A stretch of DNA of 64,000 nt from Agarilytica sp. (GTDB taxonomy: Bacteria > Pseudomonadota > Gammaproteobacteria > Pseudomonadales > Cellvibrionaceae), in NCBI GenBank assembly GCA_045430305.1, contig JAILXW010000002.1, forward strand, positions 387,953 through 451,952, in the 5' to 3' direction. The first letter of the stretch is position 1. Every line of letters starts with the position of its first letter. Below, in pieces: positions 4,695 through 17,080 of the stretch. The position numbers and the translations under genes were made by a program. Under the pieces are notes generated by a model. It saw only the letters and a list, made by a program, of their open reading frames with translations. It was not told the origin of the DNA and searched no databases.

Positions 4695-6035
4695 ATGACG
4701 CGTAAGTATTTCGGCACAGATGGTATTCGCGGAAAAGTGGGTGAAGGAGTGATCACACCGCAGTTCTTTTTGCAGTTTGGTTGGGCGCTGGGTCAAGTAC
4801 TAGAAAGGCGCAGTCAAAGCTCAGAGCCTTGCAAAGTTCTTATCGGTAAAGACACGCGTATTTCGGGTTATATGTTCGAATCTGCGCTCGAGGCTGGTTT
4901 AATCGCCGCCGGGGTAGACGTGCTCTTGCTGGGCCCAATGCCAACCCCTGCGGTGGCGTATTTAACGCGTACATTTCAAGCGTGCGCCGGTATCGTTATC
5001 AGTGCCTCCCATAACCCGTTTACAGACAACGGCATCAAACTTTTTGATGGCGATGGGACTAAGCTTGCGGATGATCTGGAGCTAGAAATCGAAGCGCAGC
5101 TCGATCAGCCTATTATCATGACGGAAAACCTAGGGCGTGCAGAGCGTGTCGACGACGCCACTGGCCGTTATATCGAGTTTTGTAAAGGCACCATGCCTTG
5201 GAACTTTACTCTTAAAGGCCTCAATATTGTATTAGATTGCGCAAATGGCGCTACTTACCATTTGGCACCAAAAGTATTTGCAGAACTGGGGGCGAATGTT
5301 TCCAACATAGGCATCACTCCTGATGGTCACAATATTAATCTTGATTGTGGCGCGACCAAGCTTAAAGAGTTGCAGAAGAATGTGCTCGAAACGCACGCTG
5401 ATCTAGGCATTGCTTTCGATGGTGACGGTGATCGTGTCATGTTTGTTGATCACAACGGTGAGGTGGTCGATGGCGATCAGTTACTGTTCATTATCGCTAG
5501 CCATCGAAAAAAAGAAAAAGGCTGTGCCGGTGTGGTTGGAACGTTAATGACCAATTACGGGTTTGAACTTGGCATGAAGGCGCTCGATATTCCCTTTCAG
5601 CGGGCAAAAGTGGGTGACCGCTATGTTATTGAAGCCATGAAGAGCAACGCGTGGCCGGTTGGGGGTGAATCTTCTGGCCATATAGTGTGTAGTGATGTGA
5701 CGACTACAGGTGACGGCATTATTTCTGCCTTGCAGGTGCTTAAGGCACTTGTGGCTGAAGAAAAGCCACTGCACGACCTCAAGCGCAATATGCAAATACT
5801 GCCACAGGTGATGATTAACGTGCCTATCGCCAATCGTATTGATTTAGATGCTTGTGAGGCGGTCCAGTCGGCTCTGAAAGACGCCGACAAACAGCTCAAC
5901 GGCAGTGGTCGCGTGCTACTTCGCCCCTCAGGTACTGAGCCGGTGATTCGGGTGATGGTCGAGGGGCAGCAGCACGATCTTGTTTCACGCCTTGCAGAGG
6001 CGCTAGCGAGCGTGGTTGGCGAGGCGGTGGCCTGA
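4695..6035 (+). CDS. glmM: Phosphoglucosamine mutase
   Basis: [16 protein letters not shown] phosphoserine loop, [22 protein letters not shown]. Confidence 0.97.
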
Positions 6036-7967: not shown

Positions 7968-10900
7968 GTGTATACTGAATCCACAATCATTAAAATACAA
8001 ATAACCCTATTGGCAAGGGTGTCAGGGCTGCTGATGTCATTTCTGTTTAAGTGTTTTTTCACGCTTTGCCTTTCTTATAGCGTAGCGGTGTCTGCCAACA
8101 ATCATATTTCTGGCGGAGAAGGCTTTAGCTTTACGCAAGAAGAGATGGCGTGGCTAAAGCAGCATAAACAGATTCGCGTTGCCTTTGATGGTTATTTTCC
8201 ACCGTACAGCTTCCTTAATGAGAATGGTGAAGTAGAAGGCTTTGCAGCCGATATTTTTAAACTGATGGAGGTGCGCCTCGGTATTCAAGTGGATGTTCAC
8301 GCTCAATATCATTGGAATGCAATCTATAAGTCTGCACAAGAAAAGAAAGTTGATGTAGTAGCTTCAATGGTTCAGCGGCCAGAAAGGGCAGAATGGTTTT
8401 TGTTCAGTGAACCATATATTCATAAATCTCTGGTGGTTATTGCGAGAGAGGATGATGAGCGATTTAACGTCCGAAATGATATTCAAAATAAAAGCATCGC
8501 ACTGGTTCGCGGGTACCAATACGTAGAGAAAATACTCGACGAGTTTCCATCGTTGCAGCCGGTGTATGTTGACACGATGATCGATGCGCTAAATGCGGTA
8601 TCGGTAGGGAGTGTTGATGCGGCCATTTCGTTTCTTGGTGCCGGGCATTATTATCGAAATAAATACCTTTTATCAAATTTAAAATACGCAGCAATATTCG
8701 ATAAGAAAAGCGCAAATGAAAGCATTGCTATCAGAAAAGATTGGCCTGAGTTTGCCTCGATTCTAAATAAATTTGTTAAGAATATACCAGAAAGAAAGTT
8801 GCAAGAAATGCGTGATCGTTGGTTGCCGGTCGAGTACATGGAGAACTTGGTTGATGTGCATCTTACCGAAGAAGAATTGGCGTGGATAAATGCACACCCA
8901 AAAATACGATTGGGGGTTGACCCGGAGTTTGCGCCGTTTGAATTTATAGAAAACGGTAAGTACCTTGGCATGGTGTCTGACTATATCAAGATCTTAAGTT
9001 TGCGACTTAATATAAATATGGAGGTCGTTCCCAATTTGACATGGGATGAGGCTGTTAACAAGGTAAAGAAAAAAGAGCTAGATGTTCTACCCGCTGTAGG
9101 TAAAACAGAGCAACGTGAAAAGTTTTTGGGTTTTACGCAACCGTATTTAAACTTTCACCGGGTTATTGTGTCGCGGTTAGATTCGCCATTTATCTCTGGT
9201 TTGAATGACTTAGATGGTATGTCTGTAGCGGTTCAAAATAGAACCTCCCATCATGGGTTTGTCGAAGAGAATACAGCTTTATCGCCCGCTTTATATAATA
9301 GTTTACAAGAAACGCTATTGGCGGTTTCTGGTGGAGAGGCTGATGCGATGATTGGTAACGTCGCTTCCGCTACATATTGGATTAGAAAACTAAATCTTTC
9401 GAATTTGAAAATAGCGGCGCCTGTTTCTATGGATGTACAGAGTTTGCATTTTTCTGTTCGGAAAGACTGGCCGCAGTTGGTTTCTATCCTTGAAAAAGGG
9501 TTGCAGACGTTTACACCTCGTCAACATAAGCGAATATCAGAAAAGTGGCTGACGGTTGAATACAACCCGGAAGTTAATTTTGGTTATGTATGGAAATTGC
9601 TGGTAGCCGCCGGTGTAGCGCTAGTGTTGTTTGCGCTCTGGAATATTATGTTGAATCGAAAAGTTAGATTGCGAACAAGTCAGCTATCGTATTCGGCGAA
9701 TTATGATCGAACGACAGACCTGCCTAATCGATTTTTAATGCTTGATAGGCTGTCTCAATCCATCGCAGAAGCCAAAATAAAGAAAGAAAAGTTGGCGGTT
9801 TTGTCTGTTGATTTGAATGAGTTCAAAAAAATCAACGACAATTTTGGGCATCACGCAGGTGACCGACTTTTGAAAGATGTTGCGTTTCGACTAAAAGGGA
9901 GCTTTCCCAACGAAACGACCGTGGGTCGAATGGGGGGGGACCAGTTTCTTATTATTGTCTCACATGTAGAAGACGCGGCAGATATGGCTGTGTTGGCAGA
10001 AAATATACTCGCTGAGCTGCAAGGGAAGTTTGTCATAGGCGGTGAAGAGCTTGTTCTGACCTCGAGTCTAGGCATTTCGATGTACCCTGGGGATGGTGAA
10101 GATGCCGAGACCTTATTGCAAAATGCAGATTCAGCAGTACATTTTTCTAAAGCAAATAAAAGAGGCGGCTATGCCTTTTATACGAAGGATTTAATCGAGC
10201 TTGTGTCGCGCCGCGTACAGCTAGAACAATGTATGCTTGGGGCGCTAGAGCGAGGCGAGTTTGAGGTTTTTTATCAGCCGAAAGTCGATACAAACTCAAG
10301 AAAGATTGTGAGTTTTGAAGCGCTGTTACGTTGGTTTAGCCGTGACTTAGGCGAGGTCTCGCCTGTTGAGTTTATTCCCATTGCTGAAAAGAATGGCATG
10401 ATTGAGCCGATAGGCGAGTTTGTACTAGATGACGCCTTAAAGAGGCTGAAGGATTGGACAAGCGCCTACGACCCAAATTTTACTGTTGCAGTGAATTTAT
10501 CGCCAATTCAATTCTACTCTCAAAATTTGGTGATAAAGATAGAGAAATTTCTTGCACAAAGTTCTTTGTCTAGCAGAGCTCTAGAGTTAGAAATTACCGA
10601 AGGCGTTTTGCTAACCGGGTCGAAAGAAGTTGAGAAAACGTTAAAAAAATTGGAAAGCTTGAATGTGACGCTAACCATGGATGATTTTGGAACAGGTTAT
10701 TCCTCCATGAGTTATCTTCGTAAATTCAATTTTGATACGATTAAAATTGACCGGGAATTTATTATGGATCTTCCGGGTGACTATTCAGATAAACAGCTCG
10801 TGTCAGCGACAGTTGCCATGGCGCATGGTTTGGGTATGAATGTTATTGCAGAAGGCGTTGAAACTGAAGATCAGTACGCATTTCTTTTGGGGCTTGAGTG

Positions 10901-10988
10901 CGACGTGATGCAAGGCTGGTTGTTTAGTAAAGCCCTTCCTGTCAACGAAATCACTAAAATTCTCCAGAGTGGAAGTCATTTTTTGTAA
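7968..10988 (+). CDS. Membrane c-di-GMP signalling protein: two periplasmic solute-binding domains, TM helix, GGDEF (GGDQF) and EAL domains; start may be ATG 8034
   Basis: Two similar BvgS/EvgS-like repeats (IRVAFDGYFPPYSF and IRLGVDPEFAPFEF), TM helix VWKLLVAAGVALVLFALWNI, GRMGGDQF, EALLRW, DDFGTGYSS, AEGVE. Confidence 0.9.
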   Translation: MYTESTIIKIQITLLARVSGLLMSFLFKCFFTLCLSYSVAVSANNHISGGEGFSFTQEEMAWLKQHKQIRVAFDGYFPPYSFLNENGEVEGFAADIFKLMEVRLGIQVDVHAQYHWNAIYKSAQEKKVDVVASMVQRPERAEWFLFSEPYIHKSLVVIAREDDERFNVRNDIQNKSIALVRGYQYVEKILDEFPSLQPVYVDTMIDALNAVSVGSVDAAISFLGAGHYYRNKYLLSNLKYAAIFDKKSANESIAIRKDWPEFASILNKFVKNIPERKLQEMRDRWLPVEYMENLVDVHLTEEELAWINAHPKIRLGVDPEFAPFEFIENGKYLGMVSDYIKILSLRLNINMEVVPNLTWDEAVNKVKKKELDVLPAVGKTEQREKFLGFTQPYLNFHRVIVSRLDSPFISGLNDLDGMSVAVQNRTSHHGFVEENTALSPALYNSLQETLLAVSGGEADAMIGNVASATYWIRKLNLSNLKIAAPVSMDVQSLHFSVRKDWPQLVSILEKGLQTFTPRQHKRISEKWLTVEYNPEVNFGYVWKLLVAAGVALVLFALWNIMLNRKVRLRTSQLSYSANYDRTTDLPNRFLMLDRLSQSIAEAKIKKEKLAVLSVDLNEFKKINDNFGHHAGDRLLKDVAFRLKGSFPNETTVGRMGGDQFLIIVSHVEDAADMAVLAENILAELQGKFVIGGEELVLTSSLGISMYPGDGEDAETLLQNADSAVHFSKANKRGGYAFYTKDLIELVSRRVQLEQCMLGALERGEFEVFYQPKVDTNSRKIVSFEALLRWFSRDLGEVSPVEFIPIAEKNGMIEPIGEFVLDDALKRLKDWTSAYDPNFTVAVNLSPIQFYSQNLVIKIEKFLAQSSLSSRALELEITEGVLLTGSKEVEKTLKKLESLNVTLTMDDFGTGYSSMSYLRKFNFDTIKIDREFIMDLPGDYSDKQLVSATVAMAHGLGMNVIAEGVETEDQYAFLLGLECDVMQGWLFSKALPVNEITKILQSGSHFL

Positions 10989-11132
10989 TGTTCAGTGTAA
11001 GGCGCGAAAACTCGCATGTGTTTTTTGTATGAATGCTTAATACACTGTTCGTTGGGTCGCGGTGTTGATGGTGCTGCTAGCTTTGGTGGTCAGAGGAGTG
11101 TGCGCTTTATGTTGTGGCAACGGAAATTTATT

Positions 11133-13507: not shown

Positions 13508-13551
13508 ATTTTGCGTCCTTTATAAAACTGTTAATTGTTAACCATACTACT

Positions 13552-13580
13552 GTAAACGTGATAAATAAAAAAAGTATTCC
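13552..13580 (-). promoter_or_regulatory. ECF-type promoter, copy 1 (drives S8 peptidase)
   Basis: Minus strand GGAATAC-15 bp-CGTTTAC, about 45 bp upstream of the S8 ATG. Confidence 0.75.
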
Positions 13581-13586
13581 CCGAAT

Positions 13587-13615
13587 GGAATAACACATCG
13601 GTTTGATCCGTTTAC
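13587..13615 (+). promoter_or_regulatory. ECF-type promoter, copy 2 (autoregulation of sigma/anti-sigma)
   Basis: GGAATAA-15 bp-CGTTTAC, 29 bp upstream of the sigma ATG. Confidence 0.78.
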
Positions 13616-13644
13616 GCACCAGAAGGCAAAAATAAAGGTAATCC

Positions 13645-14175
13645 ATGGAATCTGCCCAAAATGTACTAAGGCGTGAGCTGAGTCGGCTACGCAGGTTTGC
13701 TTATTCTCTCACGGGAAGTGCCGCCGACGCCGACGATTTAGTGCATGACCTCGCAGTAAAGATTCTTGAAAAGGGCCTGCCCGACATGCCGGACCCAGTG
13801 CCTTGGATGATTACCTTATGTAAAAATCTGTGGATCGACGAATTAAGGTATCGGGCTGTGCGGTCGCGGAAAAACTCTGATGGCGCCGGTTCAAGCGGTG
13901 GTAGTTCTCAAAGTGATGGCAGCGAGGCGATGGACGTGAATGTTGAAGTGTGTAACAGCCTGAATAAAGTGTATTGCCATCGGGTTGTGGAAGGCTTACA
14001 AGCGCTACCAGAAGGGCAGCGCGTTGCGTTGAGCCTAGTCACCATAGAAGGGATGAGTTACGCAGAAACTGCAAAGGTGCTGGATGTGCCCATTGGGACT
14101 GTGATGAGTCGTGTAGCACGTGCTCGTGCCATGTTACTTGAAATTTTCAGTGATAAAACTGAGACGACATTATGA
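13645..14175 (+). CDS. ECF sigma factor
   Basis: Region 2 LRRFAYSLTGSAADADDLVHDL...WMITLCKNLWIDELR and region 4 LPEGQRVALSLVTIEGMSYAETAKVLDVPIGTVMSRVARAR; 176 aa with no region 3. Confidence 0.95.
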   Translation: MESAQNVLRRELSRLRRFAYSLTGSAADADDLVHDLAVKILEKGLPDMPDPVPWMITLCKNLWIDELRYRAVRSRKNSDGAGSSGGSSQSDGSEAMDVNVEVCNSLNKVYCHRVVEGLQALPEGQRVALSLVTIEGMSYAETAKVLDVPIGTVMSRVARARAMLLEIFSDKTETTL

Positions 14176-14954
14176 ATGACATTGATCTAGAAATACTATC
14201 CGCTTACATTGATGAAGAATTGGACGCACCCCAAACAGACGCTATAAAGCAACGTTTGGAAAATGATCCTGCGCTTCGTATGGTGTATAAAAAAATGCAC
14301 ACCGATAATCAACTCATTAAGCAAAGTATCTTTTTGATCGACGAAAGCCCCGTGTCGCCACGATTAAATGCCCTGCTAGATTCAGCCGATACAGCAGTCT
14401 CAGTGGAATCGCGTGGCAGCATTATCATGTCTTTCTTCAATCAACTTAAAAGCATTTTTACCGTTCCGAAAGAAAGTCTCTTTTGGCCTTCAGCTGCAAT
14501 GGCATCTGTGTTGTTTGTCATGGTCTCGATCATCTATTTCAATACCAAAGCAATACATGAAGATGTGGTAAAACTTAGCGTCTCTGGCAAGTTGGTGCCC
14601 GACTTAATCTCATCGAGTTTGAGTACAGCAGTGTCAGGCAGTGAAGTTCACATTTCTGATTTTACGGTTAAGCACAAACTGGCGTTTATGCGAGACGATA
14701 ACGTGTTGTGTAAGCAGTACGAAGTGCGCTCCTCTAATGAGTTGGTCAATGCGGTCGCGTGCTATTCAAATGGTGATTGGCGTAATACAGTGGTAGAGCG
14801 CTCCACTATTTTAAGCGTTGAAGAAAATACCTATCAAACCGCTAGTGGTGATTCCGGCTCATTTGTAGATAACTACATTCAGGAAAAAATCAAAGATATT
14901 CCTCTTTCTTCTATGGAAGAGCGAGCATTGCTAGATTCAAAGTTGGCGAAATAG
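14172..14954 (+). CDS. Transmembrane anti-sigma factor
   Basis: ATGA overlap with the sigma stop; N-terminal LSAYIDEELDAPQ anti-sigma-like helices, one TM helix, periplasmic domain with CKQY...AVAC...W. Confidence 0.82.
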   Translation: MNDIDLEILSAYIDEELDAPQTDAIKQRLENDPALRMVYKKMHTDNQLIKQSIFLIDESPVSPRLNALLDSADTAVSVESRGSIIMSFFNQLKSIFTVPKESLFWPSAAMASVLFVMVSIIYFNTKAIHEDVVKLSVSGKLVPDLISSSLSTAVSGSEVHISDFTVKHKLAFMRDDNVLCKQYEVRSSNELVNAVACYSNGDWRNTVVERSTILSVEENTYQTASGDSGSFVDNYIQEKIKDIPLSSMEERALLDSKLAK

Positions 14955-14988
14955 CCGCCAAAATCAATTCAATTATTGAGCAATTCAT

Positions 14989-15017
14989 GGAATAAGCTCA
15001 GTTACCCACGCGTTTAC
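14989..15017 (+). promoter_or_regulatory. ECF-type promoter, copy 3 (drives the DUF4382-like lipoprotein)
   Basis: GGAATAA-15 bp-CGTTTAC, same elements and spacing as copy 2. Confidence 0.78.
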
Positions 15018-15081: not shown

Positions 15082-15978
15082 ATGAAACATTTTCTCGCAG
15101 CTCTTTTCTCTCTAACACTTATCGCGTGTGGTGGTGGAGGTGGAAGCGGATCTGACGGAATGGGGCGATTGGTCGTTGGCCTAACAGATGCGCCCGTTGA
15201 TAACGCAGATGCTGTTGTAGTGACATTTGATGCAATCTCTATCAAGCCTCAAAGTGGGCCAGCAGTCGATATTGAATTGGTCGAAGCGATGTCGATCGAT
15301 GTTTTATCTTATCAAGGCGAAGACAGGGTATTGTTGCTAGATGACGTCGCCGTAGAGCCTGGTGATTACAACTGGATGCGCTTGTCTGTTATTGAAGAAG
15401 ATTCCTATATTGAGATCGATGGGCTGCAATTTCCGCTTGAAATACCAAGTGGTGCAGAGCGGGGTCTACAGCTAAACCAAGGCTTTGGTGTGGCGGCAGG
15501 GGCAGTGACAGATTTCACCTTAGATTTTGATTTGCGTAAATCAGTCCACCAAGAAGGCACTGGTGACTATAAGCTTCGCCCAACTATCCGCGTGATAAAT
15601 ACTCTAGAAATGGGGAGCGTTTCGGGCACCGTGGCGGCAGACTTAATTAATAGCGAGCTATGTAATAATGGCGATAACAATGATACCGGCAACGTCGTGT
15701 ATTTCTTTAACGGTACAGATCAAATCCCACAAGATGAACAAGGTGCTGAAGGCGATCCCGCTTTATCGGCTTCGGTCACATATAACAGCGAGTCTGATAC
15801 TTACGAGTTTTTGGCTGGTTTTGTCGCAGTGGGTAACTACACTGCTGTATTTACCTGCGATGCCAGCTTAGATGTAGCGACAGAAAACAATTCTGATGTG
15901 GTGCTATTTGGAGACCCGATAAATGTCAGTGTCACGCTAGGTGAGCGTTCAACGATAGAATTTACTGCGAGCCTATAA
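15082..15978 (+). CDS. DUF4382-like lipoprotein
   Basis: MKHFLAALFSLTLIA-C lipobox, GGGGG linker, LVVGLTDAPVDNADAVVVTF, LDFDLRKSV...YKLRP, which I recognise as DUF4382-like. Confidence 0.75.
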   Translation: MKHFLAALFSLTLIACGGGGGSGSDGMGRLVVGLTDAPVDNADAVVVTFDAISIKPQSGPAVDIELVEAMSIDVLSYQGEDRVLLLDDVAVEPGDYNWMRLSVIEEDSYIEIDGLQFPLEIPSGAERGLQLNQGFGVAAGAVTDFTLDFDLRKSVHQEGTGDYKLRPTIRVINTLEMGSVSGTVAADLINSELCNNGDNNDTGNVVYFFNGTDQIPQDEQGAEGDPALSASVTYNSESDTYEFLAGFVAVGNYTAVFTCDASLDVATENNSDVVLFGDPINVSVTLGERSTIEFTASL

Positions 15979-15985
15979 ATAAGTT

Positions 15986-16006
15986 TTTCTGTGTTGGCCA
16001 CAGAAA
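15986..16006. terminator. Hairpin after the DUF4382-like gene
   Basis: tttctgtg-ttggc-cacagaaa; no downstream U tract on the plus strand. Confidence 0.45.
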
Positions 16007-16109
16007 GTGATGAATAGAATCGCGCAGTATTTGGTAGCGCAGATAAGACAGAAAGTGAGTAACAAAAATTTCGTTTAACTTAGATTATGGACAATAGGTT
16101 GGTAATACT

Positions 16110-17018
16110 ATGCCTGAGAAATATTCATATTTTTTTAAAATGATGGGATCTTTGTGTCACGTGCAGGTTTATGCCGAAGACCAGACGAGTGCGAATAAAT
16201 ATTTTTCATATGCCAAATCAGAACTGGATCGTATCGAGCGTAAATATTCTAGAGATAATAAGTTTAGCGTCGTAAGCCAAATTAACGCATCGTCTGGCAC
16301 AGGTAGATCTGTAAAGTTAGACAGCGAAACGCGCTATTTGGTGGATTACGCAGAGCGAATATACAAACAAAGTAATGGAATGTTTGATATTACTACAGCG
16401 GTTCTACGTGATTTATGGAATGGAAAAAATGGAGTTGAACCAAGCCAAGGAACATTGGAAGAAACACTCATTAATTTAACGGGTTGGAATATTGTTGGCT
16501 GGGGTGGTGGCGAGATACTCCTGCCAGAAACCGGAATGAAAATAGATTTTGATACATTTATCAAAGAATATGCGGCAGACAAACTCGTAAAAATACTGGG
16601 CTTGCAGGGCGCGCCTTCTGTATGTGTTGATTTAGGTGGTTCCGTTGCCGTGAGTGGTCCAAATCTAGATGGGGGGCCGTGGAATATTGAAGTTGCCAGC
16701 CCTTGTGACACGCTAAAGATTATTACTGAACTACCAATTGTTTCAGGTGGTCTCGCGGGGAATCATGGTGTTGGCCCGTCTTCTGAATCTGGCTTTGATT
16801 CTTTTGGACAACTGTATTGTCCAAAAACTGGTTTGCCTGTGCACTGTGAATCCGTGGTGAAGGTTCAGGCTGAGCGGTGTTTGGTTGCCGGGGTCATTAC
16901 TGCTATCGCAATGTTGCAAGGGGAAGAGGCAGGAATCGACTGGCTGTCGAAGCTTGGTATTCCATTTATAGTGTATAGACCAGATGATGACCGTATAGAG
17001 CACAAAAAAATTGCTTAA
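16110..17018 (+). CDS. Divergent ApbE-like FAD:protein FMN transferase homolog with no signal peptide and degenerate motifs
   Basis: FKMMGS, RIERKYSR, SNGMFDIT, KEYAAD, LGGS, PKTGLP and CLVAG follow the ApbE pattern, but several canonical active-site residues are replaced. Confidence 0.72.
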   Translation: MPEKYSYFFKMMGSLCHVQVYAEDQTSANKYFSYAKSELDRIERKYSRDNKFSVVSQINASSGTGRSVKLDSETRYLVDYAERIYKQSNGMFDITTAVLRDLWNGKNGVEPSQGTLEETLINLTGWNIVGWGGGEILLPETGMKIDFDTFIKEYAADKLVKILGLQGAPSVCVDLGGSVAVSGPNLDGGPWNIEVASPCDTLKIITELPIVSGGLAGNHGVGPSSESGFDSFGQLYCPKTGLPVHCESVVKVQAERCLVAGVITAIAMLQGEEAGIDWLSKLGIPFIVYRPDDDRIEHKKIA

Positions 17019-17056: not shown

Positions 17057-17080
17057 GGCCACGCAAAGTGGCCTTTTTTT
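17057..17080 (+). terminator. Terminator between the convergent ApbE-like and exonuclease genes
   Basis: ggccac-gcaaa-gtggcc followed by T7. Confidence 0.7.

Follow-up and report, generated by a model that had tools for sequence, protein, structure and literature searches.

The 64-kb window, meaning the whole stretch of DNA that was analysed, contains a compact gene cluster in which an ECF sigma factor gene stands back to back with a gene for a secreted peptidase and is followed by genes for a membrane anti-sigma factor and a lipoprotein (Table 1). The first-pass annotation had placed S8 peptidase, sigma factor and lipoprotein genes beside three copies of a short bipartite motif, and domain searches confirm these identities, with a S8 peptidase, a sigma factor made of regions 2 and 4, and a DUF4382 lipoprotein. 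In the sigma factor, Sigma70_r2 covers residues 9-70 and Sigma70_r4_2 covers residues 115-164, while regions 1.1 and 3 are absent; this restriction to regions 2 and 4 places the protein among the ECF sigma factors. It scores 58.1 bits against the TIGR02937 sigma70-ECF model, above the cut-off of 42.9, and its best NCBIfam match, PRK12511, falls below that model's own cut-off. Regions 2 and 4 are separated by an insertion rich in Gly/Ser at residues ~73-105 (encoded at 13860-13960), and the protein has 176 residues against ~156-170 in almost every one of the closest relatives listed. The translated peptidase begins with an N-terminal hydrophobic, signal-like segment, and an AAGGTG ribosome-binding site can be read before the DUF4382 gene.

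Table 1. Genes and predicted promoters of the sigma factor cluster and its flanks, in window coordinates
Feature	Coordinates	Strand	Basis or remark
Large GGDEF-EAL protein with two periplasmic SBP_bac_3 domains	7968-10988	+	Pfam families, called genes; upstream of the cluster
Beta-barrel-like protein, 302 aa	11109-12017	+	tblastn, many loci; tail to tail with the S8 gene
Secreted S8 (subtilase) peptidase, 492 aa	12029-13507	-	Pfam Peptidase_S8, E 6e-33; divergent from the sigma gene
Predicted ECF26-type promoter of the S8 gene	13552-13580	-	-35 GGAATAC 13580-13574; -10 CGTTTAC 13558-13552
Predicted autoregulatory ECF26-type promoter of the sigma/anti-sigma operon	13587-13615	+	-35 GGAATAA; -10 CGTTTAC
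ECF sigma factor, ECF26-like, 176 aa	13645-14175	+	Sigma70_r2 and Sigma70_r4_2 only
Membrane anti-sigma factor, 260 aa	14172-14954	+	Start overlaps the sigma stop
Predicted ECF26-type promoter of the DUF4382 gene	14989-15017	+	35 bp past the anti-sigma stop
DUF4382 lipoprotein, 298 aa, lipobox LIAC	15082-15978	+	Pfam DUF4382, E 2e-32
ApbE-family flavin transferase	16110-17018	+	Pfam ApbE, E 2e-40

The anti-sigma factor is a membrane protein co-encoded with the sigma factor through overlapping stop and start codons, as is typical of group ECF26. It has an N-terminal LxAxxD(G/E)EL signature, a single hydrophobic segment at about residues 103-125, and, in its periplasmic domain, a cysteine pair, C180 and C197, and a tryptophan, W203. 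In 80 anti-sigma homologues, for which the conservation of L9 and L17 was also measured, D14 is invariant, W203 is kept in 97%, and the cysteine pair occurs in ~63%, including EcfR6 of Sinorhizobium meliloti. Among the Pfam anti-sigma-domain models, RseA_N and zf-HC2 match below threshold only. Identity to EcfR6 in the C-terminal, periplasmic domain is 29% (E 1e-7), and the cysteine pair is common to both proteins. This pair may act as a disulfide or redox-sensing element. The stretch with C180 and C197, near W203, is encoded at 14709-14762, and some ECF26 members are known to respond to sulfite.

The bipartite motif in the window and in related loci

The pattern GGAATA(A/C)-N15-CGTTTAC has exactly three matches in the 64-kb window, two in the divergent gap and one before the DUF4382 gene, just where the first-pass annotation had put them and nowhere else. 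Dinucleotide-preserving shuffles of the window gave 0 matches to GGAATAM-N15-CGTTTAC in 100, and the shorter core GGAAT-N17-CGTTT returns the same 3 sites in the window against an expectation of 0.26. Allowing 3 mismatches adds 8 sites to give a total of 11 against 9.7 expected, which is chance level, and none of these 8 has both elements intact. A variable-spacer scan of the window likewise yielded no credible further sites; its extra matches were at chance level and lay within genes or had a broken -10. All three copies are oriented toward the downstream gene and lie ~30-65 bp before its start; the distance from the end of the -10 to the ATG is 45 nt for the S8 gene (13507, minus strand), 29 nt for the sigma gene (13645) and 64 nt for the lipoprotein gene (15082). 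This orientation and spacing fit promoters. A search for a sigma-70-like promoter in the divergent gap, 13508-13644, found none.

Direct reading of the sequence shows 6 bp (13581-13586) between the -35 elements of the two back-to-back copies, the distance given in the first-pass annotation. Its observation that both elements and the 15-bp spacer length are kept while the spacer sequences differ also stands: by eye, two pairs among the three copies share 1/15 and 4/15 spacer positions, which is chance level, and the same behaviour is seen in relatives. Aligned with five promoters of relatives, the copies keep GGAAT and CGT as the invariant columns of the motif, together with one C in the upstream flank. 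A 15-nt stretch covering the spacer end and the -10, TACCCACGCGTTTAC, is identical between the DUF4382 promoter of the window (15003-15017) and the sigma promoter of the related locus L084 (5959-5973), and the two spacers differ outside it. This shared stretch could reflect chance or an extended -10 preference.

Homologues of the sigma factor are numerous, with 1850 at E<=1e-10, and the comparison used 80 listed loci with a sigma homologue, an alignment of 40, and the contigs of the closest relatives. In these loci from Gamma-, Alpha- and Betaproteobacteria, a phylogenetically non-independent sample, GGAAT-N16/17-CGT occurs at -150 to -20 of the sigma gene on the coding strand in 52 of the 80 loci listed, against a background of 0.016 expected per locus. 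Such placement directly upstream of the sigma gene is a hallmark of autoregulation. Throughout the loci listed, the spacers differ and the bipartite motif is retained. An opposite-strand copy lies back to back with the sigma-side copy in at least 21 loci, window included; the gap is 6-10 bp in at least 19 of these 21, mostly 7 or 9, and the 6 bp of the window is the tightest. The divergent gene encodes a S8 peptidase in most of the back-to-back loci, and a divergent S8 gene is found in ~30 loci among those listed.

The site before the lipoprotein gene also has counterparts. In locus L089, whose sigma factor is 66% identical, the motif lies at +3206, between the anti-sigma gene and the DUF4382 gene, as in the window. 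In L082 (~60% identical), the DUF4382 gene has been relocated 2.5 kb upstream on the other strand, and the motif has moved along with it (-3327). Each of the three window sites is thus backed by counterparts kept at equivalent positions in relatives. A Pfam scan of 40 further genes preceded by the motif revealed no DUF4382 protein, so the link to this family is clade-specific; the families found include sulfite oxidase, catalase and DUF6065, alongside many unannotated secreted proteins. The lipoprotein is listed here as a predicted regulon member. Literature searches returned no match for GGAATAAA together with ECF, nor for DUF4382 together with sigma factor.

Downstream of the lipoprotein gene, the extent of the transcription unit is less sharply drawn. 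The gap before apbE (15979-16109) contains no motif according to mismatch and variable-spacer scans and reading, no plus-strand terminator was called between the DUF4382 and ApbE genes, and a strong terminator lies 3' of ApbE at 17057-17073. The apbE gene may be co-transcribed by read-through, and its regulon membership is uncertain. The linkage of DUF4382 and ApbE is not kept in L082, whose ApbE gene belongs to a DUF3570 / two-component cluster. The imperfect hairpin at 15986-16006 was called terminator-like for the minus strand only.

On the other flank, the beta-barrel-like protein of the window has a sub-threshold match to BBP2_2 only, and its homologue in L084 (3300-4205) carries a precomputed match to PF04575 (SlipAM, surface lipoprotein assembly modulator). 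A gene for a beta-barrel-like protein of ~300 aa adjoins the S8 gene tail to tail in many loci, for example at 1705-2514 in L007 and 1714-2517 in L013. The sequence upstream of the window gene at 11109 was read and contains no motif. In many gammaproteobacterial relatives, the beta-barrel gene follows a gene for a secreted, low-complexity protein of 230-350 aa, rich in Ser/Ala/Asn/Gln, which has its own ECF26-type motif; the window has neither this gene nor its motif, and in their place the GGDEF-EAL gene precedes the beta-barrel gene.

Relation to known ECF26 systems

The closest described counterparts come from S. meliloti, in which four sigma factors belong to group ECF26 (Lang et al. 2018, PMC6180224). 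The cross-species consensus of this group is GGAATA at -35 and GT at -10, and the divergent placement of rpoE6 and the serine protease gene SMa0142 recurs widely within it (PMC6180224). Overexpression of RpoE6 induces SMa0142, the rpoE6-ecfR6 operon and nearby genes (PMC6180224). The ECF Hub consensus for ECF26, as quoted in Table 4 of a 2026 paper (PMC13492112), is xGGAATA / xxCGTTTT, which agrees almost letter for letter with GGAATA(A/C) / CGTTTAC of the window. The match to the published ECF26 consensus, together with retention at the same positions in dozens of loci, bears out the earlier proposal that the motif follows the general ECF promoter pattern. The sigma factor itself very probably belongs to a described ECF group, which the first-pass annotation did not recognise. 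The statement in that annotation that the motif defines the ECF regulon holds for the local cluster only, the scan having covered the 64-kb window; in S. meliloti, RpoE6 overexpression raised ~40 genes (PMC6180224).

The RpoE6-EcfR6-SMa0142 system shares the layout of the window, with a S8 gene, a divergent sigma gene and then an anti-sigma gene. The window sigma factor is 36% identical to RpoE6 (E 9e-24) in a comparison confined to this ECF26 member, and the S8 peptidase is 35% identical to SMa0142 (E 4e-64). As in ECF26 systems, a GGAATA / CGT(T) promoter motif precedes the sigma factor's own operon, here GGAATAA-N15-CGTTTAC at 29 nt from the ATG, and as in the RpoE6-like subgroup, a S8 gene is divergent from it. 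The genes rpoE6, SMa0142 and ecfR6 were located in pSymA by tblastn and ORF listing, and the printed SMa0142 promoter, GGAATAGACCGACGACTCAGCCGTTCTGACACAa (GGAATAG-N14-CGTTCTG), can be read in the intergenic region on the minus strand. A GGAATA...CGTT promoter motif before the protease gene is common to the window and S. meliloti, with a spacer 1 nt longer in the window.

The two systems also differ in several respects. In the rpoE6 intergenic stretch of pSymA (13700-14060), no plus-strand GGAAT was seen and no tight back-to-back pair is evident; the sequence upstream of rpoE6 is listed as different, and ecfR6 has an internal promoter (PMC6180224). The other strong RpoE6 targets, SMa0139, SMa0146 and SMa0148, are not DUF4382 proteins. 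RpoE1 and RpoE4, which belong to the same group and respond to sulfite, have autoregulated promoters of the GGAATA type and a co-transcribed membrane anti-sigma factor, as predicted for the window (Bastiat et al. 2012, PMC3511301). Unlike the window system, they have no S8 peptidase; they control sulfite dehydrogenase genes and a 'Lipoprotein_15' protein, and this lipoprotein, encoded in the rpoE1 operon, belongs to a family other than DUF4382 (PMC3511301). The ECF Hub consensus and the Pecf26 synthetic switch (Casas-Pastor 2021; PMC10880074) are family-level predictions, and the passages that present them are silent on the locus described here, on DUF4382 and on divergent geometry.

A very similar bipartite motif, GGAAC-N16-CGTT, marks the EcfG / ECF15 general stress promoters, but the -35 is GGAAT in the window and GGAAC in ECF15. 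Control of ECF15 factors works through NepR/PhyR partner switching. In contrast to this arrangement, the anti-sigma factor of the window is a membrane protein homologous to EcfR6.

Group ECF26, its consensus promoter, its autoregulation and its partnership with a protease are all already published, and since the consensus and the protease partner were described before, recognising them here is routine annotation rather than discovery. The result is a confident, transferable annotation of an envelope-signalling module of the ECF26 (RpoE6-like) type, carried by a gammaproteobacterium of marine type that is uncultured or little studied. Three predicted promoters give the module a small local regulon, comprising the S8 peptidase, the sigma/anti-sigma pair and the DUF4382 lipoprotein. 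The module opens no new kind of biology. What is new is minor: the DUF4382 lipoprotein as a predicted clade-specific ECF26 target, and the tight divergent geometry (6-10 bp), which is conserved in many lineages.

Readings of the three sites

On sequence grounds, the ECF26-type sigma factor whose gene lies at 13645-14175 very probably uses the three motifs as promoters. Until an envelope signal frees it, this sigma factor would be held inactive by the membrane anti-sigma factor. Once free, sigma would bring RNA polymerase to GGAATA, the -35 contacted by region 4, and to CGTTTAC, the -10 contacted by region 2, which lie 16 bp apart. Transcription would then begin ~12 nt after the C of CGT, near 13545 (-), 13621 (+) and 15023 (+); these predicted starts follow from the TSS listed for SMa0142, 12 nt after the C of CGT (PMC6180224). 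Sigma would in this way activate its own operon, a positive autoregulation of sigma and anti-sigma factor, and would raise the secreted S8 peptidase through the back-to-back promoter as well as the DUF4382 lipoprotein, possibly with read-through from DUF4382 into apbE. By analogy with S. meliloti, we infer that all three promoters depend on this sigma factor in the source organism.

The same analogy raises the question of which sigma factor does the reading. The S. meliloti ECF26 paralogues RpoE1, RpoE4 and RpoE6 cross-activate each other's promoters, and RpoE6 shares part of its regulon with the ECF15 factor RpoE2, whose consensus motif is similar (PMC6180224). Because of such cross-activation, another ECF26-like sigma factor in the genome could also read the sites. 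That a paralogue, either an ECF26 member or an ECF15-like factor of the GGAAC-N16-CGTT type, is their main reader is nevertheless improbable: in more than 50 loci the motif travels with the adjacent sigma gene, directly upstream of it, and the ORFs between 10000 and 20000 of the window include no second ECF sigma factor.

The back-to-back copies also form an inverted repeat, TATTCC-N6-GGAATA, centred at ~13583/13584, which could be taken for a palindromic operator of a dimeric transcription factor. This is very unlikely, because the third copy is solitary, the sigma-side copy stands alone in many loci, and the gap between half-sites varies from 6-10 bp up to 61 bp, whereas the distance from -35 to -10 is steady at 16-17 bp. 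The bipartite motif is, moreover, a published sigma consensus. Chance recurrence, or a functionless remnant of a repeated or mobile element, has nothing in its favour except the shortness of the conserved blocks and deserves almost no credence. A repeat finder detected no extended repeat around the three sites, an Rfam search of the region gave no family match at E<=0.1, and the sites are kept at equivalent positions in distant taxa; the empty shuffles and the conservation in 52 of the 80 loci listed exclude chance. Promoters read by the neighbouring ECF26-type sigma factor therefore remain the preferred reading.

Geometry of the divergent pair

The predicted starts of the divergent pair are ~76 bp apart, so that each -35 element occupies roughly positions -47 to -41 relative to the opposite start. 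In promoters of the sigma-70 family, this is the usual place of upstream polymerase contacts. Interference or supercoiling coupling between the two promoters is plausible, since each -35 coincides with the upstream contacts of the other polymerase. Whether the tight back-to-back pairing is a functional device, beyond compact packing, is doubtful. If it were one, the two holoenzymes would be mutually exclusive or coupled by the supercoiling of divergent transcription, and protease would then be made in a set proportion to sigma/anti-sigma. Feedback of the S8 peptidase on the anti-sigma factor, through its periplasmic domain, may come in addition. The 6-10 bp pair offers a possible natural test case for the interplay of two promoters of the identical sigma factor at close range.

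The two sides of the pair show a systematic asymmetry in their spacers, T-rich on one side and A-rich on the other. In the 21 back-to-back loci, T makes up 61% of the 8 nt that follow GGAAT on the side of the divergent gene, as in GGAATATTTTTTTT, and A makes up 45% on the sigma side, as in GGAATAAA; the two spacers of the window lie at 13559-13573 and 13594-13608. In L042, a Beijerinckiaceae metagenome-assembled genome, the divergent -35 elements at 4899-4909 overlap as the palindrome GGAATAATTCC, with a gap of -11, which carries the back-to-back layout to an extreme.
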